From Mobula hypostoma (Eukaryota), in NCBI RefSeq assembly GCF_963921235.1, contig NC_086097.1:99822001-99886000 (forward strand): DNA of 64,000 bases. The letters are read 5' to 3'. This document shows positions 2,416 to 64,000 of the stretch, in pieces. Under the pieces are notes generated by a model. The model worked only from the letters and a program-made list of their open reading frames with translations, was not told the origin of the DNA and made no database searches. The translations under genes were made by a program, and so were the position numbers. Position 1 is the stretch's first letter. Every line of letters starts with the position of its first letter.

Positions 2416-2727
2416 CTAGAGAAACAACAGATGTATTAACACAAGCAATATATGACATTTGGATTTTAAGTTGTTAAAACTACAATAATTTCACTGCCCA
2501 GTTATCCGCAGTACCTCCAAAAAGTTTCTGAAATCACAGAATTGAAATGAGAAATGCACACTTTTCATATCAAGATTAAACAGCAATCCTTTGATATTTT
2601 GATATAAGAAAGTTCAATTAATGCATTTCCACAATAACTGAATCTCTGGAGCACATCTTTGATTTACAAACCTATTTGTCATCCAAGCAGCATTTAATGG
2701 AATACACGGGAACAAAATCTTCAACTG

Positions 2728-3600
2728 AGGGTGACTTGGATAGGTTGGGTGAGTGGGCAAACTCATGGCAGATGCAATTTAATGTGGATAAATGTGAAGT
2801 TATCCACTTTGGTGGCAAAAATAGGAAAACAGATTATTATCTGAATGGTGGCCGATTAGGAAAAGGGGAGGTGCAACGAGACCTGGGTGTCATTATACAC
2901 CAGTCATTGAAAGTGGGCATGCAGGTACAGCAGGCGGTGAAAAAGGCGAACGGTATGCTGGCATTTATAGCGAGAGGATTCGAGTACAGGAGCAGGGAGG
3001 TACTACTGCAGTTGTACAAGGCCTTGGTGAGACCACACCTGGAGTATTGTGTGCAGTTTTGGTCTCCTAATCTGAGGAAAGACATCTTTGCCATAGAGGG
3101 AGTACAAAGAAGGTTCACCAGATTGATTCCTGGGATGGCAGGTCTTTCATATGAAGAAAGACTGGATGAACTGGGCTTGTACTCGTTGGAATTTAGAAGA
3201 TTGAGGGGGGATCTGATTGAAACGTATAAGATCCTAAAGGGATTGGACAGGCTAGATGCGGGAAGATTGTTCCCGATGTTGGGGAGGTCTAGAACGAGGG
3301 GTCACAGTTTGAGGATAGAGGGGAAGCCTTTTAGGACCGAGGTTAGGAAAAACTTCTTCACACAGAGAGTGGTGAATCTGTGGAATTCTCTGCCACAGCA
3401 AACTGTTGAGGCCAGTTCATTAGCTATGTTTAAAAGGAAGTTAGATATGGCCCTTGTGGCTACAGGGGTCAGGGGGTATGGAGGGAAGGCTGGGTTCTGA
3501 GTTGGATGATCAGCCATGATCATAATAAATGGCGGTGCAGGCTCAAAGGGCCGAATGGCCTACTCCTGCACCTATTTTCTATGTTTCTATGTTTCTATGT
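2728..3600 (+). mobile_element. Young 5'-truncated CR1 LINE (end of ORF2 plus 3' UTR)
   Basis: Open frame with LVRPHLEYCVQFWSP and RRLRGDLIETYKI; (TTTCTATG)n tail; near-identical to 55973-58071. Confidence 0.95.
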
Positions 3601-19249: not shown

Positions 19250-20075
19250 TTCAATACCATTATCTCCTCAGTATTAATCACAAGATTCTAAACCCAAGCC
19301 TCGATACCACCAACTGCAATGGGATCTTCAATGTTCTCATCGGGAGACCACAGTCAATACAGACTGGTAGTAACATCTCCTCCTCGCTGACTATCTAGAG
19401 GCGTCACAGTAACAATCTCTCACACTCAATGTCAAGACCAAAGAATTGTTTGTGGACTTCAGGAGGGAAGTTGGGAGAACACACACCAGTCCTCATTGAC
19501 AGGTCAGCAGTGGACAGGTGAACAGCTTTATGTTCCTGAGTCTCAGCGTCTTAGAGGATCTATCTTGGCCAACACATTGATAAAAGTAGGCACGCCAATG
19601 ACTGCATTCACCAGCAACTTTGATGTGTGTTACGCCAATGACTGCTTTGTTAGCGCTTGAGGAGATTTAGGATGTCACCAAAGATCTTGAAAATCATCGC
19701 TCTTACTGTCTGTATCACAGTCAGGTATGGAGGCTCCAAAGCACAGGATCACAAGAGAATGCAGAGGGCTGTACACTCAGTCAGTTCCATCACAGGCACA
19801 ACACCCAAACTCCCCACCTCTGAGGTCATCTTCAAGATGCAGTGTCCCAAAAAGGTGGCATCCATCACTAAAGATGCTTACTATTTGGGACATGCCTTCT
19901 TCTCATCATTAGAGAGGTACAATTCAGAAACAGATTCTTCCCCTCTGGCAACAGATTTCTGAACAGTCCATGAAGCCATGAATACGATCTCCTTACTGCT
20001 TTTTTTTTGGGAGTATTTACTTTATTGTGTTGTACCACTGCTGCAAAATATCCGACAGTGATAATAAGCCTGATC
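19250..20075 (+). mobile_element. Decayed Rex1/Babar-like LINE 3' part
   Basis: Homology to 34668-35650 (KTKELFVDFRR-type segment) and GTGATAATAAGCCTGAT tail. Confidence 0.65.
19606..19631 (+). mobile_element. 26-bp micro-insertion of the PLE-derived short element
   Basis: ATTCACCAGCAACTTTGATGTGTGTT between perfect 14-bp repeats ACGCCAATGACTGC (19592-19605, 19632-19645). Confidence 0.85.
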
Positions 20076-26689: not shown

Positions 26690-29560
26690 TCTTGGCAGCT
26701 CATGGAGTAAAAGGTTTTTATCATAGCTCCATCTTTCACAACTTACTTTCTACTGTTAGATTCGTTTAAAGTTTGAAGATTTATTATTTTTGCTGAAGGA
26801 TCTACGATTTAATTACGATGGCTGATACTCGATCTGGAATCAAATTAAGAGGTGGCAAAACTCTTCCTGAAGTTGAACAAAGAAATCAGAGCAGAAAGAG
26901 TGCTCTCTTTAATAGAAGCTATTAATGCGAAGATCGGAATGGTGGACACCAAGATCGATAAACTGACGAACGCTCATGAAAAGCTGGAAAAAAAATTTTC
27001 GCTGTTCAGGAATCTTTGAAGAACCTGGAAGTTCAATATCAGACACTTAAACAGAACAATCACAGAACTGAAAGAGAACAGGAGTTAATGAGTCAAACTA
27101 TTAAAGAACAAGAATTGAAGTTGTCTTTTATGGAAAAGAAAATTAATGAGGCTGCTTCAGAGTTATCAAGAATTAAGAAGAAAATGATCGATCTGGAAAG
27201 CAGAAGTCACAGGATGAATTTACACATTCTAGGTTTGTCTGAAAATACAGAAACTGGTCAGGCATTGAAGTTTTTTTCGAACATGTTATATTCACTTTTT
27301 AGTGACATTCTCAAAGCCTGTCCAATTCTGGACAGAGCCCACCGAATTCGATGCCCTAAACCTTCAGCCGAAATGAAACCATGTCCTGTGATTCTGTGTT
27401 TGCATTATTTTACAACCAAAGAAGCTATTCTTCGGGATGCAAGGAAAAGGGATAAGCTAATTTATAATGAAGTAAAGATTCGTATAGTTGAAGATTTTAC
27501 CCCAGAGATTTATGCTGAAAGAATTATATATTGAGAAGTTATGGCTGAATTTTATAAGATTAACTGTCGTCCCTTTTTGCATTATCTGGCTCGTCTGATA
27601 GTTACTCTACCTAATACTCGTCCAAAACGGTTGGAAGACGGTTGGAAATCTATAAAGGAGTTTAAGTCCACCTTGCAAGCAATTTGAAAAGTTAATCCTT
27701 AGCTGGGAGCTGTTTGTTACGGTTTCGATGAATGTCCGCTCCACGTTTTATGAGTGCCCAGACATGGATTTGGTTGACTTACTTAGATCTATTGTTGTTT
27801 GCTTTAATAGTTAATATATATATATACTCTTTGATTTGTAAGTCTTTAACATTAGTTGTAGTATATTAGTTGGTTGGATTTATCTTTTTCTGAATACATG
27901 GGTACGTATTTTAAATGGATTTAAGATGGCCGTTGTTAGTTCCCTGTTAACTATTGTTAGACATAATATGAACATATTTGGAGTTTGTTTATTTCTTTAT
28001 GTACTCTTTGTTATGTTTTTTTTGGTGGTGGTAACGTATACTTTGTAAGCAAGGGCTGCTATCTGGAAACAGGGGTCAAGGGTCATTAGAGTAGCATGCT
28101 GTCCATCTATTGGATGGTTTCCGGGTTTTCAGGATAGAGGGGTGGGTCTATTAGACTAGATTTTTTTTGACTGGGCAGTCCTGGGAGGTTCTTTTTGTCA
28201 ATTATCTTGCTTTTCTTTCTGATCGAGTCATGCTTTTTCCTTTCTTCAGATTTAGTTTGCACCTGCGCATTAGCTTACTTTATAAACTTTTAAAATTCAA
28301 CTTTAAATATGGATCTTAATAAAATTAATATAATATCTTGGAATTTGAACGGTATGAACCAACCTATTAAGCGCAGAAAGATTTTTAAGAAATTAAAAAC
28401 ACCATGCAGATATTATTTTTGCGCAAGAGACTCATATCCGCAGGCATATCCGTAGGCAGAATGAAAATCAATTTTTAAAAAAATTTTGGTAGGGACCCTT
28501 ATTTCATTCTTTATCAGTAAATAAAATAACAGGGGTATCTATTTTTATTAATTCTAAAATCCCTTTTGTTCATTTTAATACTGTTACTGATTTAATCGGA
28601 AGATATTTAATTGTTACTGGTCTGTTATGTGGTCAAAAGGTGGCTTTGGTGTGTGTCTATGCACCTAATATAGATAGCCCTGAATTTTTTAAGAAGCTAT
28701 TTTCTGTGCTGCCAAATTTAAATGAATATAAGTTGATTATGGGTGGTGACTTTAACTGCCGTCTCAATCCGTCGATTGAGAGATCGTCCACCAATCCTTC
28801 ACCTCCTAATAAAGCTGCGACTTGTATTAATTCTTTTTTATTAGAATACAGTTTGGTGGATATTTGGAGATTTAGACGTCCTAAAGAAAAAGATTTTTCT
28901 TTTTTTTCACATGTATACCATAAATATTCAAGAATTGATTATATTTTGCTGGAGATGCAATTGGTGCCCTCTGTTGCTAATTGTTCCTATGATGTGATTG
29001 CGTTGTCGGATCATGCACCTATGAAACTAATTTTGAAGTTTTCTGATAATATTCTGAAGTTACTTCAGTAGAGATTTAATGTTTCATTGCTACAAGATTC
29101 AACCTTTGTAAATTTTTATTAAAGAGCAAATTCCTCAATTTTTGAATTAAATACAACTGAGGGAATGTCAAATTTGGTTATTTGGGATACGAAGAAATCT
29201 TTTCTTAAGGGACAGATAATTTCATACTCAGTAGGTTTAAGGAGGAAGACCAAGGCGGAACTCTTAGCGATTACTAATAGGATTAAAGAAATAGATAAAG
29301 TTTATTCAGTAATGCCTAGTGAAGATCTCTTTAAGGAAAGGGTGGAACTCCAAGCACAACATGATTTGCTTTTGACTTTTCCCAATGAGCAGCAACTTCT
29401 TAAATCTAAAGTCAATTTTATATACATGGAGACAGGCCAGGCAAATTATTGGCTGGTCAATTAAAAGTAAATATGGCTAAAGACAGATCCTAAAAATACG
29501 AAGACCTGATAGAACTGAAACAGTAGATTCTTATGAAATTAGTAAGGTATTTATAGATGC
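26690..29560 (+). mobile_element. L1-clade LINE, 5' half: ORF1 (~26818-27686), spacer, ORF2 APE domain (from 28309); disrupted and 3'-truncated
   Basis: ORF1 coiled coil plus LDRAHRI...IRIVEDFT; ORF2 IISWNLNG, QETH, YAPN, GGDFN, SRIDYI, SDHAP. Confidence 0.9.
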
Positions 29561-31630: not shown

Positions 31631-32140
31631 ACCTTATGCACGTCCAGCTAACTTGCTGATGCATTCCTCCACCACATTCATTTCAAGTTTCAATTAGGCA
31701 GATATGATTAATTTTAATACAGAACCATGCTAATCAACTTAAGTCACTCTATTCCCAATGAGGGATTCTTCTGGCTTTCCCAAAACTGACAGGCATATGG
31801 TATTCAAAATTCTCTGTCACCTTTCGTGTACTATATTAGTAATTTGCATGTTTAATTATGAGCTGTGAAAGACCACAATTCTAAGTAAGTTTATTAAGTC
31901 CCAAGGTTTTAACTTTTGTTAGCCTTACTATATCTTGAATATTAAAAAGTACTCACCCACTAAATTACCTTAAATGAAAGTCAAATACTTCAGATGCCGA
32001 AAATCTGAAACAAAAACAGAAAATGCTGGGAACACACAAATCAGGCTGCATCTGTGGAAAGAGAAACTGACTTGTTTTAAAAAAGTAAAAAACCTCTTGT
32101 GTGAACTGGAAGAAAATAAAAAACAAATCCATGGCATACA

Positions 32141-32353
32141 AGAGGAATTCTGCAGATGCTGGAATTTCAAGCAACACACATAAAAATTGCTGGTGAACGC
32201 AGCAGGCCAGGCAGCATCTATAGGAAGAGGTACAGTCAACATTTTGGGCTGAGACTCTTCGTCCTGACAAGGGTCTGGTCCGAAACATTGACTATACCTC
32301 TTCCTATAGATGCTGCCTGGCCTGCTGCGTTCACCAGCAATTTTTATGTGTGT
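32141..32353. mobile_element. Fold-back PLE-derived short element with decayed hammerhead motifs
   Basis: Inverted arms around ~32260; 13-bp TSD TCCATGGCATACA (32128-32140, 32354-32366). Confidence 0.9.
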
Positions 32354-33416
32354 TCCATGGCATACAGGTCGGGTTACACGGTGATTACACTTTTGTTTGT
32401 GTAGTATTCTGCAAGTTGCAGGGCTGTGCTACATGCCCAGCACAATCAGATTATTAATGGAGAGAAGAAAACCAAGCCATAACCACAAACAGATGACGTA
32501 CAACAGAAATGACAATAGTAACACACAGAAAGCAAACTACCCAAAGCTAGACGATTGCGTCTCGAAGGTTGAAACATGCCTCCATAGAAGACGAGGTGTT
32601 AATCTACAAACCTTCACTGGGCATTATATGGTTAAGTCAGAATAGGTGGAATAGAAAGTTAACATGGCAGGCAACAGGAAGGTTAAGGTCTCCCTTGCAG
32701 ACAAGTTGAGAAAATCACTGTGATTTTACCAAATGTAATACACCAGCTTGGAAGTGCAAATGATTAGCTGTGTCATATGGAAAGGCTGTTTGAGTCACTG
32801 GATGGTGGCTAAGGTAGGGGCAAAAGGACGAGCATGACATGAGAGTATCATAAGATAGTGAGCACAGTGAAGACTGGTAACAGAAACATGTATGCTTCCT
32901 GCTTAGAGAACTCAAAAACTTATTTCATTCATGCCCAATTACCATGCTGATCCCACCTTTACAAGGTCCATTTTGATTCCTTCCAGAATCCCTGTCTTCA
33001 TCTCAGAGAATAAACACCTATTGCTGATCTACGGGCTCCCACAGTCACCTTCACCATACTTCAACCAATCTCCCCAAAGACTACCATTCCATTTGCCCAG
33101 TTCTTCTGTCTGCAATGTATCTGCTGAGGAGTTATTTTGCACAGGCGCCTGTTTTTAAATGGTCAATTTGCCACTACCACAGAGTGCAGAGCCCCTGACC
33201 ACAATCTATTTCCTATACTTCTGCTCCTAATTCCTTTTTGTCCTGGGCAGAGTAAGAAAAGCTCCCACTATCACCAGCCTTCACATTCAACTAATCATCC
33301 TTTGACACATATGGGTTTTAACAAACAGCAGTCTCCACCAGCAGACATACTCCACCCTCAGCATTGAAGGACCCCCCCCCGATAAAGTTTAAGGGAATGG
33401 GGGATTCTCAGATCAC

Positions 33417-34148
33417 TGTAAACAATGAATTAAGTACTGACCATGTCTGTGACTGCAGTGTGTTTGAATAATGTCTCACAGCTGCCTTCTTTGGAGCAAG
33501 ATAAGGGTTAAAGTACGCCCAGATCCACATAGATCTCTCTGGGCTTTTCACACCTTTTGATTTTGACAAAAAGCAGTACCTGATGGAAATTGGACAGAAC
33601 ATTCCTTTCTTAATTAAAGCATAAATTTGACAGATGTTCTCATCTTTGTAATTAAGTTGTGGCTCCAGCAAACCAGGTAGGACATTCTTTTCTTTAATTA
33701 AGGTGGCTGGAGTGTCTAAAAAAATTGATTGTACTTTTCTATCAATAGTCCATTGACTTGGCCGGAATAGTTATCAAATTGATTGTTCTTTGTATCAATA
33801 GTCCATTGACTTGGCCGGAATGGTTATCAAACTGATTGTTCTCTGTATCGAATCCATTGACCTGACCGGAACAGTTATCAAACTGATTGTTCTCTGTATC
33901 AATAGTCCATTGACTTGATCGGAATGGTTATCAAACTGATTGTTCTTTTGTATCAGTGGCCTTATAACTTCTGACAATTCTGACATCGGGCAGTGAACTT
34001 GTAGAACCACCGGGGAGATGAGAAAGGGTCTTTCCCTGATGTCGGGTGCGAGTTCACTCGCCCGCTGAGCTCGAAGAAATAAACGGGTGAAAAGATAAGT
34101 AACGATCTTTTTGTGCTGTCGTTATTTGATCTAGTAGTTACGTTTACA
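33417..34148 (+). mobile_element. Probable solo LTR with internal ~53-bp tandem repeat
   Basis: Ends TGTAAAC...GTTTACA; TATAA ~33963 and AATAAA ~34078; TSD not evident. Confidence 0.7.
33722..33957. repeat. 51-54-bp tandem repeat, ~4.3 copies
   Basis: Unit (T/C)TGATTGTTCTCTGTATCAATAGTCCATTGACTTGGCCGGAATGGTTATCAAA. Confidence 0.92.
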
Positions 34149-35650: not shown

Positions 35651-36836
35651 ATCACTCACTTGCAGTCCTTCTCCATTTAATAATAATCTGTATTTTGAAA
35701 CCTGTTATCCAACAGCAAGATCTCACTTCCCCAAATTGAACTCCATATGCTAAGCTTTTCCTCCATTACTTAATTCATGATATATCATTCATGATATGCT
35801 CACAACATGCTCTATTTTGCATCATTAGCATGCTTGGATATCTTACATTTCCCCTTTCATCAGAGTATTTATAAGTACTAATACTTGGGATACGAGTTAT
35901 ATCTTCACTTTAGTCTCCATCTTATAGCACACACTCATGCAACCATAGTGATGGAAACCCTGGCTTTCCTACTATCCAAGCATCGAAACAGTCTTTCCAG
36001 TTGAAGCAGCAAATCACTTGCTCCAGTCTTGTGTAGAGCATGTGGTGTTCTCAATGTGATCTACAAACAGAGAAGCCAGACACAGGCTCAAGGGTTGCTT
36101 TGAAGAGCAGCTTTATTCAGTCCACAGGCGGTTCTTGCTATTGACTATTTTAATTCTGTGCCCAATTCTCATCAGTCTGTACCCTCCCACATGACTATGG
36201 CAAAACCCAATTTCAGCACGTAGAGCAACACTATTTTCAGGGGATATCATTACCTTCCAGGCTTGATGTCAAATTCTCCAACTTAAGGTAATAGCTTTCC
36301 TGTGACTAAAACAAAATTGACCATCTCTGTTCACTGTTATCCCAACCGTGAAACTAGGCACTTACTGTAGCCCTGTTATTAGCCAAATCAGACAGGAGCA
36401 CAAATCACAATCCTACTGCTCCCATTAACCCATTTGACCCAGCCATATTTCAAATAGTCCTTTCTTTTGCCCATTTTTCTCCCACACCTCCCCAACCCCC
36501 ATTTTTTCTCAACTTAAGCCATTCTCTCTTTTCCAGTGATGGCGAGGAGGAGCTTTGATTTGAAATGCTATTTAACTTTCTACAGATTTGACCTGAGTGG
36601 TTGAATCTTCCCAGCATTTTCAGTTTTCATACTAAATTAGCTTGGCAGCCATTAACACAATAGGTTTTCACTTCCTTTAACCTTAATCTACTTGAGAATT
36701 TTTCCATTCCAAACTTAATTTGCTTCACTAACTGTCTTTTGTAACATACATCTTGCTAAATTGCATAGCCCTTTGGAATACCATTTGCTGGAATGTATAT
36801 ATTTGGCATTCCCTTCATGGATAGGCTGATGATAAA

Positions 36837-36872
36837 AGTCCTGACGAAGGGTCTCGGCCTGAAACGTCGACT
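36837..36872 (+). ncRNA. Minimal type-I hammerhead ribozyme motif
   Basis: AGTC-CTGACGA-A-GGGT/CTCG/GCCT-GAAA-CGTC-GACT: stem I AGTC/GACT, intact CUGANGA and GAAA cores, GUC cleavage triplet ending 36868. Confidence 0.75.
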
Positions 36873-36970
36873 GTGTCTCTTCCTATAGATGCTGCTTGGC
36901 CTGCTGCGTTCACCAGCAACTTTGATGTATGTTGCTTGAATTTCCAGCATCTGCAGAATTCCTGTTGTTT
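36838..36970 (+). mobile_element. 133-bp PLE-derived element starting at a hammerhead ribozyme
   Basis: 13-bp TSD GCTGATGATAAAA (36825-36837, 36971-36983); homologous to the tail of the long PLE. Confidence 0.9.
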
Positions 36971-37231
36971 GCTGATGATAAAACTGATGGTTTGTCTTGT
37001 TCTTTACCAATGCAACCTGAAATGTACTAAACATTACTTTGCAAGTGCCACTCAGTGGGCTTGGCTCTCACATCTCAATATTTTGACACAAACAGCCCAA
37101 GTATTTCACATATGAATGCTTTTTAAGAATATAATTTACATTTCAATATACATTCGTAAATGTTACGGAAGGACAGTACTAAAATTTTCCTTGACAATTA
37201 TCATACTCCAAACAAGGGAACAGCTTTCTTT

Positions 37232-37454
37232 AAAAACGCAAACATGAGGAATTCTGCCGATGCTGGAAATTCAAGCAACACACATCAAAGTTGCTGGTGA
37301 ACGCAGCAGGCCAGGCAGCATCTCTAGGAAGAGGTACCGTTGACATTTCAGGCCAAGACCCTTCGTCAGGACTAGGGTCTCGGCCTGAAACGTCGACTGT
37401 ACCTCTTCCTAGAGATGCTGCCTGGCCTGCTGGGTTCACCAGCAACTTTGAAGT
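37232..37454. mobile_element. Fold-back PLE-derived element (minus-strand unit 37232-37373 plus inverted partial copy)
   Basis: 14-bp TSD GAACAGCTTTCTTT (37218-37231, 37455-37468); minus-strand AGTCCTGACGAAGGGTCTTGGCCTGAAATGTC. Confidence 0.9.
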
Positions 37455-40626: not shown

Positions 40627-43287
40627 CGCACAACACCACTCTATCCCTCATTCCCCCCCATTCCTCTAATTCCTCATCCTCCCCTAACCCTGCTCTCCCT
40701 GAACATCCTAACCCCCCTCCCTCCTGAGACCTCCAACTTTTTACCCTACTCTGACCCCAGCCCCAACCCATGCCGTGTCTTCACCAACCCCTCTGACCTT
40801 CCCCTCTCTGAGGTAGAACATTCTGTCCTTAACAAGGGCCTCACTTTTGTCCCCCTCCGTCCACACCTCAGTGAGTTCCATGCCCACCATGACGCTGAAC
40901 TCTTCTTCCATCGCCTACGTCTCCAAGCCTACTTCTTTGGCAAGGATTCCCCTCCCCCAACTGATAACCCCCTTCTCCCGTCTTCAACCCTCCTCCTCCT
41001 GGACACCCCGCCCAGGCCTTCTACCTGCCCTCAATCTTTTCATCTCCAACTGTCGCCGAGACATCAACCGTCTCAATTTCACCACTCCTCTCTCCTGTTC
41101 CAACCTCACTCCCTCCGAATGCACTGCCCTCCACTCTCTCTGCACTAATCCCAACCTCACCATCAAACCTGCAGACAAAGGTAGCACTGTAGTAGTCTGG
41201 CGGACGGACCTCTACCTCACTGAGGCCAAACGGCAGCTGACACCTCCTCTTACTTACCCCTGGAACAGGACCCCACCAAAAAACATCAAACCATTGTCTC
41301 CCGTACCATCACCGCCCTTATCAACTCCGGAGTCTTTCCATCCTCCGCCGCTAATCTCATATTTCCCACACCCCGTACCGCTTGGTTTTACCTCCTCCCC
41401 AAGATTCACAAGCTTGACTGTCCTGGAAGACCCATAGTTTCTGCCTGCTCCTGCCCCACTGAACTTGTATCTGCCTATTTGGACTCCATTTTGTCACCCA
41501 TAGTTCAGTTCCTCCCCACCTACATCCGGGATACATCCCATGCCCTCCACCTCTTCAATGACTTCCAGTTCCCCGGTCCCGACGGCTTCATTTTCACTAT
41601 GGATGTCCACTCCTTATACACTTCCATTCCCCATCAAGAAGGCCTCAAAGCCCTCCGCTACTCTCTGGACAATAGACCTCACCAGTTCCCCACCACCACT
41701 ACCCTCCTCTGGTTGGAAGAACTGGTACTCACACTTAATAACTTCTCTTTTGGCTCTTCCCACTTTCTTCAGACCAAGGGTGTAGCTATGGGCACTCGCA
41801 TGGGCCCCAGCTATGCCTGCCTCTTTGTTGGTTATATGGAACAGACTATGCTCCAAACCTTTACTGGTACTGCTCCCCAACTTTTCCTTCGCTACATTGG
41901 TGCTGCTTCCTGCACCCATGCTGAGCTCGTCAATTTCATCGACTTTGCTTCTAACTTCCACCCAGACCTCAAATTCACTTGGTCCATCTCGGACACCTCT
42001 CTCCCCTTTCTCAATCTCTCGGTCTCCATCTCTGGAGATAGACTGTCCACTAACATCCTCTATAAGCCCACTGACTCTTATAACTACCTCGACTATACCT
42101 CTTCCCACCCTGCCACATGCAAAAATGCCATTCCCTATTCCCAGTTCCTCTGTCTCCGCTGCATCTGCCCCCAGGATGAGACTTTCTGTTCCAGGACATC
42201 TCAAATATCCTCTTTCTTTAAGGATCGTGGTTTCCCTTCTGCCGCCACCAATGATGCCCTCACCCGCATCTCCTTCATTTCCCGCACTTTGGCCCTCACC
42301 CCATCCTCCTGTCACCACAACAGTGACAGAGTTCCCCTTGTCCTCACCTACCACCCCACCAGCCTCCGGATCCAGCACATTATCCTCCACCACCTTCAAG
42401 AGGACCCCACCGCTAAGCATATCTTTCCCTCTCTACCCCTCTCCGCAGGAATCATTCCCTCTGCGACTCCCTGGTCCACAGGTCCCTCCCCACGGATCTC
42501 CCACCTGGCACTTATCCTTGCAAGCTTAAGTTCTACATCTCCTTTCTCACCACCATTCAGGGCCCCAAACAGTCCTTCCAGGTGAGGCAACACTTCACTT
42601 ATGAGCCTGCTGAGGTCACCTATTGCATCCGGTGCTCACGGTGCAGCCTCCTCTACATCGGTGAGACCGGACGACGATTGGGGGACCGCTTCGTCGAGCA
42701 CCTCCGCTCCATCCGCCACAACAGACAGGATCTCCCGGTTGCCACCCACTTCAACTCTGCTTCACATTCCCATTCAGATATGTCCATACATGGCCTCTTT
42801 TACTGCCATGATGAGGTCAAACTCAGGTTGGAGGAGCAACACCTCATATACTGTCTGGGTAGTCTCCAGCCCCTTAGCATGAACACTGAATTCTCCAACT
42901 TCTGGTAATCCCCTTCCCCCATCCGTTTCATTCTGCCCCCTCCCCCAGCTGCCTATCACTTCCCTCATGGTTCCGCCTCCTTCTACTACCCATTGTGCTC
43001 CCCCCATTCCTTCTTCACCTTTCCTGCCTACCCCCTCCCTGCTCCCCCCCCCCACCCCTTGAACTTTCCCTTTACTGGTTTTTCACCTGGCACCTACCAG
43101 CCTTCTCCTTCCCACCCTCCCCCCACCTTCTTTATAGGGCCCCTGACCCCTCCCTCTTCAGTCCTGACAAAGGGTCTCCGCCTGAAACGTTAACTGTTCG
43201 TTTCCACGGATGCTGCCCGACCTGCTGAGTTCCTCCAGCGTGTTGTGCATGTTGTTTTGACCCCAGCATCTGCAGAGTATTTTGTGT
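40627..43287 (+). mobile_element. Penelope-like retroelement (RT plus GIY-YIG endonuclease), frameshifted
   Basis: IKPADKG, FTMDVHSLYTSIPH, QTKGVAMGTRMGPSYACLF, YCIRCSRCSLLYIGETGRRLGDRFVEH; hammerhead-like tail 43159-43196; 15-bp TSD with one mismatch (40612-40626, 43288-43302). Confidence 0.95.
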
Positions 43288-49239: not shown

Positions 49240-49755
49240 CATTGTAACAAATTGGATAGTGACAGGTTGACTCTTTGGGTTTTGGCAGGTTCAGTGTCAC
49301 TGTTTGGTTAATGTCAGGTTTGGTGTTTATGGATTGATGTTGACAGATTCATTATTGATAAGTTTGGTGTTTGCAGGTTCAATGTTGGCAAGTTGAGTGT
49401 TGACAGGTTGGGTTTTGACAGAGTGTTGATTGTTGACAGGTTGGTGCTTATGGGATTGGGTGTTTACTGGTTAGGTGTTTACCGGTTGGATGTCGACAAG
49501 TTGGATGTTTATGGGATTGGGTGTTTACAGGTTGGGTGTTGACAGGTTGGATGTTTATGGGATTGGGTGTTTACTGGTTGGGTGTTTACCGGTTGGATGT
49601 TTACTGGTTGAGTGTTTTGGGTGTTTATGGGTTGGGTGTTGACAGGTTGGATGTTTATGGGATTGGGTGTTTACTGGTTGGGTGTTTTGGATGGGTTGGG
49701 TGTTGACAGGTTGGATGTTTGTGGGTTTGGGTGTTGACAAATTGGGTTTTGACTG
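49240..49755. repeat. G/T-rich degenerate minisatellite with 15-16-bp units
   Basis: Alternating GGGTGTTTACTGGTT / GGGTGTTGACAGGTT / GGATGTTTATGGGATT units. Confidence 0.85.
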
Positions 49756-55479: not shown

Positions 55480-58290
55480 GACCCTACCACTAAACACATC
55501 TTTACCTCATCCCCCACTCTCTGCTTTCTGCAGGGATCACTCTCTGTGATTCCCTTGTCCATTCATTCCTCCCCATTAATCTCCCTCCTGGAACTTTTCC
55601 CTGCAGGTGGAGGATGTGCTACATCCGCCCATTCACCTCCTCCGCCACCTCCATTCAGGGCCCCAAACAGTCCTTCAAGGTGAGGCAACATTTCAGTTAC
55701 GAATCTGTCAGTGTCATCTACCATATCCAGTCCTCCCAATACAGCATCCTCTGTATCAGTGAGAGACAATGTAGATCAGGGGACCACTTTGTCGAGCACT
55801 TTTGCTCCAACCATGACAAGCAGTATTTCCTGGTGGCCAACCATTTTAATTCCAATCCCTTTTCCCATTCCAACATGTTCATCCATGGCATCCTCTACTG
55901 ACACAATGAGACCACTCTCAGGTTGAAGGAGCAACACCTCATATTCCATCTGGGTAGCCACCAAACTGATAGAAACATAGAAACATAGAAAATAGGTGCA
56001 GGAGTAGGCCATTCAACCCTTCGAGCCTGCACCGCCATTTATTATGATCATGGCTGATCATCCAACTCAGAACCCCGCCCCAGCCTTCCCTCCATACCCC
56101 CTGACCCCTGTAGCCACAAGGGCCATATCTAACTCCCTCTTAAACATAGCCAATGAACTGGCCTCAACAGTTTGCTGTGGCAGAGAATTCCACAGATTCA
56201 CCACTCTCTGTGTGAAGAAGTTTTTCCTAATCTCCGTCCTAAAAGGCTTCCCCTCTATCCTCAAACTGTGACCCCTCGTTCTGGACTTCCCCAACATCGG
56301 GAACAATCTTCCTGCATCTAGCCTGTCCAATCCCTTTAGGATCTTATACGTTTCAATCAGATCCCCCCTCAATCTTCTAAATTCCAACGAGTACAAGCCC
56401 AGTTCATCCAGTCTTTCTTCATATGAAAGTCCTGCCATCCCAGGAATCAATCTAGTGAACCTTCTTTGTACTCCCTCTATGGCAAAGATGTCTTTCCTCA
56501 GATTAGGGGACCAAAACTGCACACAATACTCCAGGTGTGGTCTCACCAAGGCGTTGTACAACTGCAGTAGTACCTCCCTGCTCCTGTACTCGAATCCCCT
56601 CGCTATAAATGCCAGCATACCATTCGCCTTTTTCACCGCCTGCTGTACCTGCATGCCCACTTTCAATGACTGGTGTATAATGTCACCCAGGTCTCGTTGC
56701 ACCTCCCCTTTTCCTAATCGGCCACCATTCAGATAATAATCTGTTTTCCTATTTTTGCCACCAAAGTGGATAACTTCACATTTATCCACATTAAATTGCA
56801 TCTGCCATGAGTTTGCCCACTCACCCAACCTATCCAAGTCACCCTGCATCCTCTTAGCATCCTCCTCACTGCTAACACTGCCGCCAAGCTTCGTGTCATC
56901 CGCAAACTTGGAGATGCTGCATTTAATTCCCTCATCCAAGTCATTAATATATATTGTAAACAACTGGGGTCCCAGCACTGAGCCTTGCGGTACCCCACTA
57001 GTCACCGCCTGCCATTCTGAAAAGGTCCCGTTTATTCCCACTTTTTGCTTCCTGTCTGCTAACCAATTCTCCACCCACACCAATACCTTACCCCCAATAC
57101 TGTGTGCTTTAAGTTTGCACACTAATCTCCTATGTGGGACCTTGTCAAAAGCCTTTTGAAAATCCAAATATACCACATCCACTGGTTCTCCCCTATCCAC
57201 TCTACTAGTTACATCCTCAAAAAATTCTATGAGATTCGTCAGACATGATTTTCCATTCACAAATCCACGCTGACTTTGTCCGATCATTTCTCCGCTTTCC
57301 AAATGTGTTGTTATCACATCTTTGATAACTGACTCCAGCAGTTTCCCCACCACCGACGTTAGGCTAACCGGCCTATAATCCCCCGGTTTCTCTCTCCCTC
57401 CTTTTTTAAAAATTGGGGTTACATTAGCCACCCTCCAATCCTCAGGAACTAGTCCAGAATCTAACGAGTTTTGAAAAATTATCACTAATGCATCCACTAT
57501 TTCTTGGGCTACTTCCTTAAGCACTCTGGGATGCAGACCATCTGGCCCTGGGGATTTATCTGCCTTCAATCCCTTCAATTTACCTAACACCACTTCCCTA
57601 CTAACATGTATTTCACTCAGTTCCTCCATCTCACTGGACCCTCTGTCCCTTACTATTTCTGGAAGATTATTTATGTCCTCCTTAGTGAAGACAGAACCAA
57701 AGTAATTATTCAATTGGTCTGCCATGTCCTTGCTCCCCATAATCAATTCACCTGTTTCTGTCTGCAGGGGACCTACATTTGTCTTTACCAGTCTTTTCCT
57801 TTTTACATATCTATAAAAGCTTTTACAGTCCGTTTTTATGTTCTCTGCCAGTTTTCTCTCATAATCTTTCTTCCCCTTCCTAATTAAGCCCTTTGTCCTC
57901 CTCTGCTGAACTCTGAATTCCTCCCAGTCCTCAGGTGAGCCACTTTCTCTGGCTAATTTGTATGCTACTTCTTTGGAATTGATACTATCCCTAATTTCTC
58001 TTGTCAGCCACGGGTGCACTACCTTCCTTGATTTATTCTTTTGCCAAACTGGGATGAACAATTGTTGTAGTTGATAGTATGAAGGTCAATTTCTCTACCT
58101 TCCAGTAATTTTCCCCTCCTCCTTCCCTGTTTCATTTCCCACTCTGGTTCCCCTCTTGCCTCTTCTCTTCACCTCACTTGCCTATCACCTCCCAGGAGCG
58201 ACCCTCCTCCTTCCCTTTCTCCCTTGTTCCACTGTCCTCTACTATCAGATTCCTTCTTCTTCAGTACAGACCTTTTCCACCTATTCCTTT
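55480..58290 (+). mobile_element. PLE GIY-YIG remnant split by the CR1 insertion (55480-55972 and 58072-58290)
   Basis: IQGPKQSFKVRQHF...GDHFVEH; sequence resumes after the CR1. Confidence 0.8.
55973..58071 (-). mobile_element. Young 5'-truncated CR1 LINE with an uninterrupted 664-aa ORF2 portion (complete RT, no endonuclease)
   Basis: [51 protein letters not shown] (55967-55972, 58072-58077). Confidence 0.97.
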
Positions 58291-63140: not shown

Positions 63141-63940
63141 ACAATGGGGAGATGAATAGGTTGCTTGAACCCGCTCTGACTTTTAATAATGAATGACCTG
63201 ATATATGGTCTGAACTCCAGCCCATAATCAATTATTCCCTCTAGTTTTAAAGTACACTGCTTTACTGTCTTATCCCCTTGTCTGTTGTTTCTCTAACATC
63301 AGAATCTAGTGATCTTTGTTTTGAACACAATCAAGGACTGAGCCACCATAGCCCTCCGTAGTACAGAATTCTAAGGATTCACTACCCTAAGAGTCCTGAA
63401 TGTGGACTCCTTATTGACCCCTAGTTCTATAGTCATCATTCAAGGGAAAATATCCTTTGAGTATCTACCCCGTTCTGCCCTTTAGTGATTTTGTGTGTTT
63501 CAAATCACACCAGCTCCCATTCTTCCTGACTAAAGTCTTTAAGTCAGTCAATTCAATCTCCCCTCATATGACAGACCTGCTATGCCAGGAACCAATATCA
63601 CTACACTCTACCTAAAATAAATATAAACTGGTTTTAATTAAGGAAACATAAATTGTACACAATTCTCCAGATCCTGTGGAATTGTATAAGACATTTTTTA
63701 CTCAAATCGTCTTGTCATTAAATCATGGAGGCATACAACATGGAAACTGGGATGTTAGCCCAACGCATCCATGACAATCAAATTACTTACCAGTCCCTGT
63801 TGCTTGCTTTTAGCCCAAATCCCTCTGAATCTTGCCTACCCATGCATCTGTCCAAATGCCTTTTAAATATCACAATTGAACCCACTTGTATCACTTGCTT
63901 TGGCAATTCTTTCCACGTACCCAGCATCCTTTGTGTGGAC

Positions 63941-64000
63941 AACACACACCAAAGTTGCTGGTGAACGCAGCAGGCCAGGCAGCATCTGTAGGAAGAGGTA
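63941..64000 (-). mobile_element. Another copy of the short PLE-derived element, cut by the window edge
   Basis: AACACACACCAAAGTTGCTGGTGAACGCAGCAGGCCAGGCAGCATC. Confidence 0.85.

Follow-up and report, generated by a model that had tools for sequence, protein, structure and literature searches.

A 133-bp insert in Mobula hypostoma matches the terminal module of a Neptune-type Penelope-like element and probably marks an RNA start at its hammerhead motif

The window, a 64,000-nucleotide stretch of the Mobula hypostoma genome (contig NC_086097.1, positions 99,822,001 to 99,886,000), contains a 133-bp insert on the plus strand that shares 98.5% identity with each end of a 4.26-kb, full-length Penelope-like element (PLE) of Neptune type in the same genome (L196). 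The insert probably arose by retrotransposition as a short copy of this autonomous element's terminal module, made when copying began about 135 bases inside the RNA and ran off at the RNA 5′ end, likely the first base of a hammerhead motif. The insert (36838–36970) is flanked by exact 13-bp direct repeats (GCTGATGATAAAA); the chance of a 13-bp match abutting both ends is about 1.5e-6, allowing three bases of slack on each side. Element positions are numbered from the G at window position 36838 (+1), with no position 0, and the predicted ribozyme cut falls between +31 and +32. Because the A at 36837 is both the last base of the target-site duplication and a base of the element itself, the insert starts at −1 or +1. 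The features of the insert and its relatives in the window are as follows.

36825–36837, plus strand: left target-site duplication, 13 bp (exact direct repeat)
36838–36970, plus strand: insert, positions +1 to +133 of the terminal module of a Neptune-type PLE (98.5% identity to L196:3503–3635 and L196:7016–7148)
36837–36840, plus strand: 5′ strand of stem I, (A)GTC, at which short copies most often begin (end counts)
36841–36848, plus strand: core CUGACGA plus an extra nucleotide before stem II (sequence; defining features in PMC4209133)
36849–36860, plus strand: stem II GGGU/GCCU with a CUCG loop; G·U at 10.1–11.1 in the young subfamily
36861–36868, plus strand: core GAAA, loopless palindromic stem III ACGU (36864–36867) and GUC triplet; predicted cut after 36868 (sequence)
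36869–36872, plus strand: stem I 3′ strand, GACU
36935–36970, plus strand: ‘tail’, bounded by the two clusters of family 3′ ends, the putative reverse-transcription start sites (end clusters; PMC11167929)
36971–36983, plus strand: right target-site duplication, 13 bp (exact direct repeat)
37232–37454, unstranded: same-family fold-back, minus arm −2 to +139 head to head with a plus arm from +11; 14-bp duplication GAACAGCTTTCTTT
32138–32354, unstranded: same-family fold-back, arms +6 to +131 and +1 to +96; 13-bp duplication
19602–19631, plus strand: same-family 30-bp stub (+67 to +96); 14-bp duplication
63940–64000, minus strand: same-family arm, cut by the window end
41224–43276, plus strand: sister-family PLE in pieces (reverse transcriptase 41224–42585, GIY-YIG 42417–42908, hammerhead module 43161–43276, the last 76% identical to the insert)

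The hammerhead motif reads GTC (36838–36840), CTGACGA (36841–36847), A (36848), GGGTCTCGGCCT (36849–36860), GAAA (36861–36864), CGTC (36865–36868) and GACTG (36869–36873). All core residues of a minimal hammerhead are present (C3, U4, G5, A6, N7, G8, A9, G12, A13, A14, A15.1, U16.1 and H17), as are the additional nucleotide that separates position 9 from 10.1 (A36848) and the palindromic 15.2–16.2 segment (ACGU) without a loop 3. The exception is the stem II pair next to the core, where G10.1–C11.1 is expected and the insert has G·U. This wobble occurs in 127 of 149 family motifs; G-C is found in 19 of these 149 and in 36 of 82 other motifs. The responsible position, +23 (window 36860), is T in the young subfamily and often C in older and sister families, and the T converts the usually conserved pair to G·U. 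While the family is spreading, its ribozyme may be in decay. Energy minimisation predicts, in place of the hammerhead, an extended hairpin in which GACG of the core pairs with CGUC (−10.7 versus −6.7 kcal/mol for the hammerhead; hairpin pair probability 0.98), and the predicted minima of monomer and dimer are both off-folds. The region folds no better than shuffled sequences (z −1.66, −0.39 and −0.77). No Rfam match reached the gathering score in the window, and the loose core pattern alone occurs there 13 times against 7.35 expected, so identification of the hammerhead depends on its full anatomy and context. The earlier note had described a 133-bp insert between perfect 13-bp duplications, beginning at a minimal type-I hammerhead of Penelope type; the insert is confirmed by its exact repeats, and the motif has the anatomy described, qualified by the G·U pair, the predicted fold and the Rfam result.

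Within the M. hypostoma genome no compensatory stem changes were found, and variation is mostly CpG decay. Among look-alike motifs from other organisms with a 13-base helix II, which represent other, mutually related families, stem I is paired with changed pairs in 34 and 35 of 40. Public metagenome contigs (L416–L495) yielded 40 minimal hammerheads, all distinct, that share this core and the GGG...CCC-GAAA-CGTC frame; they differ in their stem I pairs and many are preceded by T-rich tracts. As the search pattern specified a helix II one base longer than in the family of the insert, these matches represent other families only.

Hammerheads have been known in Penelope-like repeats since 2014 (Cervera & De la Peña, PMC4209133). 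According to the accessible text of that survey, the minimal hammerheads of metazoan PLE pseudo-LTRs (pLTRs) share with the insert a full core, an extra base before stem II, a palindromic loopless stem III and a short stem I; they too lie in both flanking repeats and are mostly single motifs ascribed to truncated PLEs. They carry G-C at 10.1–11.1, in contrast to the G·U of the young subfamily here, and the 5′ ends of truncated copies, mapped in the present work, are not mapped in the same portions of the survey.

The parent element, L196:2889–7149, is arranged as pLTR–ORF–pLTR, with the 133-bp unit at 3503 and 7016, 3,513 bp apart. Its ORF is an unbroken 1,043-codon frame encoding a reverse transcriptase (RT) plus, at the C terminus, a GIY-YIG domain. 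The RVT_1 and GIY-YIG matches lie below the Pfam curated cut-offs (E values of 1e-4 and 1e-3); the translation carries the DKG (ADKGG) and YIDD motifs and, in the linker, CX4CxxC (CKRNKCYTC), which conforms to CX2-5CxxC. The likely start codon is the ATG at +170 and the stop lies at −294, so that the unit forms the element's 3′ end as well as the ORF leader. This terminal module consists of the pLTR end plus the tail and was found in both flanking repeats of all four full-length elements fetched. The parent has in common with the Neptune EN+ PLEs (Craig et al., 2021, PMC8557442) a single ORF with RT and C-terminal GIY-YIG, the CX2-5CxxC linker, pLTRs, an adjacent inverted truncated copy and a 30–40-bp tail; the assignment to Neptune is set by these motifs and not by a tree. 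It differs in being a new family with a very high copy number and a strong two-base hotspot of 5′ ends.

Most of the 30 best genomic matches to the insert extend past its upstream side into element sequence, and two reach the locus edge at 1.5 kb. This extension enters RT and GIY-YIG coding DNA, and walking further 5′ led to the four full-length elements. From 52 arms in twenty arbitrarily placed 50-kb blocks, the family is estimated at about 180,000 arms in the 3.48-Gb genome, and an exact 25-mer from the tail occurs 11,569 times genome-wide. Short (n = 107) and long (n = 58) arms share variants in similar proportions and are about equally close to L196 (0.945 and 0.950, respectively); this sample contained no separate short-copy lineage and no private variants.

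The window also contains a LINE-type RT frame of 672 codons at 56067–58085 on the minus strand (RVT_1, E value 9e-34) and, in the opposite direction at 2622–3598 on the plus strand, an 877-bp 3′ piece 97% identical to it; these represent a young LINE family. A frame with a weak endonuclease (Exo_endo_phos_2) match at 28493–29071 (plus strand) is probably a LINE 5′ piece. Self-comparison showed tandem repeats at 49266–49753 (units of about 110–130 bases) and 33722–33955 (units of 50–110 bases).

The ends of family copies are not distributed evenly. The 3′ ends cluster at about +96 to +100 and +133 to +143, some 36 bases apart, and the duplications of solo copies are mostly 13–15 bp long (19 of the 27 that measure 10 bp or more). 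At the 5′ side, 88 tail-bearing copies taken from the first 100 matches in genome order (one contig, 86 loci) include 32 with ends past −100, scattered across more than 1,800 bases, and 31 with ends between −16 and +22. Among solo copies, with fold-back arms removed by eye and the window copy excluded, 20 start within −29 to +11 and none within +12 to +42 (p = 1e-5); solo starts at +13 to +18 and +31 to +41 do occur in targeted sets. Genome-wide 5′ ends were counted with a pattern asking for non-native bases 21–22 positions upstream of an anchor. The raw counts were 2,333 (−41 to −21), 14,009 (−20 to +1), 7,607 (+3 to +23) and 2,411 (+24 to +44), which became 5,900, 43,700, 23,300 and 9,800, respectively, after filtering and anchor correction. 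By eye, the first 100 rows of the −20 to +1 bin held 57 starts at −1/+1, six at −2 and four from sister families. Single-position starts numbered 5,310 (−1), 3,826 (+1), 2,376 (+2) and 245 (+32) before correction and about 7,300, 6,000, 2,900 and 900 after removal of point mutants of long copies and of sister families (30, 17, 35 and 13 of 100 rows by eye, in the same order). The corrections depend on base-composition filters and on sets of 100 rows classed by eye, with an error factor of perhaps about 1.5; since the sum over the bin and the totals for single positions disagree by as much as 1.8-fold, only the ratios are trustworthy.

Read as ratios, starts at −1/+1 are 7- to 8-fold commoner per position than at the cut site (+32), 31 bases downstream. 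The profile has a sharp 5′ edge and a shoulder on its 3′ side, as expected when RT runs off the end of a template, and the window copy sits on the peak. Minor clusters of 5′ ends lie at −16/−15 and −29 to −27. The earlier proposal of a recurring size class with 5′ ends that are not scattered is borne out by the 4- to 7-fold excess in the −20 to +1 bin. Its companion, that the ribozyme may set the RNA end, is not supported: the two bases at the start of stem I account for some 7,300 and 6,000 copy starts and the predicted cut site for about 900, so the ribozyme does not define the end. A cut-site spike was considered separately and rejected; eight of 90 inverted arms in a sample lie at +30 to +34, the genome count there is modest and GAC/GTC microhomology explains several of the cases.

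Judging from the DNA sequence around the peak, the RNA of the element most likely starts in an initiator-like site, on the hammerhead's first base. The initiator consensus is YYANWYY, and the TTAGTCC at the 5′-end peak matches it with its A at −1. Matches to the consensus within −120 to +40 lie at −1, −16, −29 and −61, and the end clusters at −1/+1, −16/−15 and −29 to −27 coincide with them. Sister families diverge upstream of −1 yet retain a pyrimidine tract and YCAGTCC. At another locus (L255) two arms both start at −2, one of them running to +206 in the ORF, which fits initiation in the 5′ module of an ORF-bearing RNA followed by run-off. An extra G was found by eye at 12 of 25 solo starts at −1 (p = 0.056) and in four of 12 fetched loci, where one G is a base of the duplication; the cap signature this suggests is weak. 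Initiator matches can come easily in a pyrimidine-rich tract, and microhomology with AT-rich targets can inflate A-rich starts. In assembled RNA contigs from eight runs chosen by guess there was no site at which many molecules begin and, among the joints listed, no GT..AG joint to +2 or −3, a result that speaks neither for nor against the proposed start. For the D. virilis Penelope, the available portion of PMC2377424 describes a TATA-less promoter with an initiator in the pLTR.

We propose the following origin. Most transcripts would start at the A of TTAGTCC (−1) and a minority farther upstream. The GIY-YIG endonuclease would nick both strands of AT-rich DNA, and RT would start internally at about +97 and about +135, steps already established for the Anolis element. 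Synthesis on the 5′ module would stop at the RNA end and yield a product of 100 or 135 bases, which would be joined to the second nick to leave a 10–15-bp duplication. Priming at both nicks would give two products joined head to head, the common fold-back copies. The resulting stub would likely be dead, because it has neither the upstream pyrimidine-rich region nor anything beyond the tail. The hammerhead would be carried along, and any cleavage by it would require a partner copy or the PLE protein. In the Anolis carolinensis element, Poseidon PAc (Frangieh et al., 2024, PMC11167929), RT starts internally with priming on both strands and the tail is the stretch between two RT start sites; in vitro, its protein needs RNA about 55 bases beyond those sites, product length follows the RNA 5′ end and hammerhead mutants insert normally. 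Like PAc, the M. hypostoma family has AT-rich targets; it would share with PAc a tail delimited by two internal RT start sites, priming on both strands and a hammerhead dispensable for insertion. The PAc ORF starts inside the hammerhead; the start codon predicted here lies at +170, so the terminal module is a non-coding leader.

The sharp end could also have been made by RNA processing or an RT stop acting on the same kind of stub: a 3′ splice site (AG/TCC), a branch point for a lariat at −16 or new cDNA folding back on stem I. We consider this unlikely, even though textbook acceptor anatomy lies just upstream in the family of the insert and in sister families, and this sequence could just as well be taken for a branch point with a pyrimidine tract and 3′ splice site. 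Specifically, element positions −24 to +1 (L196:3479–3503) and their sister-family counterparts carry a branch-point-like CTCAC/TACTAAC, a pyrimidine tract and AG directly before stem I; at the copy number of the family this tract may provide cryptic splice acceptors within host introns. In the D. virilis Penelope, as given in the accessible part of PMC4209133, an intron ends at helix I and separates it from the start site, 121 bases upstream. A small end peak at −15/−16 beside the branch-like A (five of 100 rows of the −20 to +1 bin; three of 88 tail-bearing copies) also agrees with processing. However, the ends include the AG (−1/+1) and also fall at +2, most solo copies have no first exon or host exon between duplication and element, none of 280 arms is a spliced copy joined to an upstream element exon, and a direct stem-I fold-back junction was seen by eye in only one of 100 rows of the −1 start set. 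Ordinary random 5′ truncation, with the start at the hammerhead by chance, would agree with PLEs being known as heavily 5′-truncated (PMC8557442) and with long copies truncated anywhere from −34 to beyond −1,800. It is highly improbable given that the −20 to +1 bin stands 4- to 7-fold above the −41 to −21 and +24 to +44 bins and is concentrated on two bases; these counts refute it unless the pattern filters are grossly biased.

The earlier note had read the insert as a PLE-mobilised, retrozyme- or SINE-like parasite. Mobilisation by a PLE holds; an independent parasite is not supported, the unit being the terminal module of an autonomous element. An independent non-coding element, its RNA cut out by the hammerhead and spread from its own master copies, would account for a sharp size class with its own duplications and thousands of copies, and copies starting at +32 exist (245 raw, with two solo examples). 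The insert nevertheless matches both coding-element ends over its whole length with shared variants, so that neither a lineage nor a head of its own distinct from its partner, as a SINE would have, is seen. Its start lies 31 bases from the cut site, and starts at +32 are at most about 2-fold above their surroundings. Non-LTR retrozymes, in the portions of PMC7229834 and bioRxiv 10.64898/2026.07.22.740005 available, are like the insert short, non-coding, PLE-derived or PLE-moved, with a type-I hammerhead and long duplications. As described there and in the accessible text of PMC6155905, they are head-to-tail repeats with a hammerhead per unit that yield circular RNA, with unit ends set by self-cleavage; the insert is a solo copy with DNA ends at −1/+1 rather than +32, and the family is mostly solo or head to head. 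The independent reading is already largely refuted, and we regard it as very unlikely. Tandem hammerhead repeats derived from PLE pLTRs are described in the available part of the bioRxiv report, and five small partial tandems were seen in M. hypostoma (L208:1754–2418, L231:1845–2401, L255:224–537, L173:1348–1814 and L236:386–800), all among the 88 tail-bearing copies (about 6%). These are two-unit structures with units of about 210–470 bases that join the first 40–160 ORF bases (+206 to +327) to pLTR sequence (−139 to −2); all five joints differ, and three of the five hold two hammerheads in the same direction. They come closest to retrozyme seeds here and could cut as cis dimers.

Run-off from an RNA beginning at −1 would account for the stubs. 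About a third of arms (58 of 186) reach past −100, so longer or circular templates or template transfer must also exist. Candidates for making long copies from such an RNA are transfer to the 3′ module, a hammerhead-made circle, proposed as a template in the accessible text of PMC4209133, and longer transcripts. A tentative extension treats the 133-base module as the terminal redundancy (‘R region’) of Penelope RNA. The stubs would then be integrated strong-stop DNA made by RT that starts within the 5′ leader and runs off the cap; normally, RT would move on to the matching 3′ copy, or use a hammerhead-made circle, and so copy the ORF and regenerate the pLTR. The cap-proximal hammerhead might switch the RNA between messenger and template. 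Junction-specific errors expected of strand transfer were not raised in long copies (one of 96 at −1, none of 102 at +1). Linkage in 75 long copies gave a mean r2 of 0.21 upstream, 0.10 across the boundary and 0.09 downstream. Within +37 to +92 of the same copies, variants 10–50 bases apart have a mean r2 of 0.09, below that of the upstream pLTR, which suggests frequent template switching or gene conversion in the module. The openly accessible main texts searched contained neither a map of a 5′-end hotspot at the start of a PLE hammerhead nor a strong-stop model for PLEs.

The element itself is ordinary, another Penelope family with a known ribozyme motif, and the useful part is the map of its ends. 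The function of the PLE hammerhead and the rebuilding of the pLTR are stated as open in the accessible portions of PMC8557442 and PMC2377424. The roughly 180,000 arms show that hammerhead-cut RNA rarely templates short insertions, and they point to one base pair as the RNA start. The start-site and strand-transfer questions are thereby made directly testable, with an unbroken ORF (L196) at hand for in vitro work. If the strong-stop reading were true, it would provide a retrovirus-like answer to pLTR regeneration, readable from some ten thousand genomic stubs.
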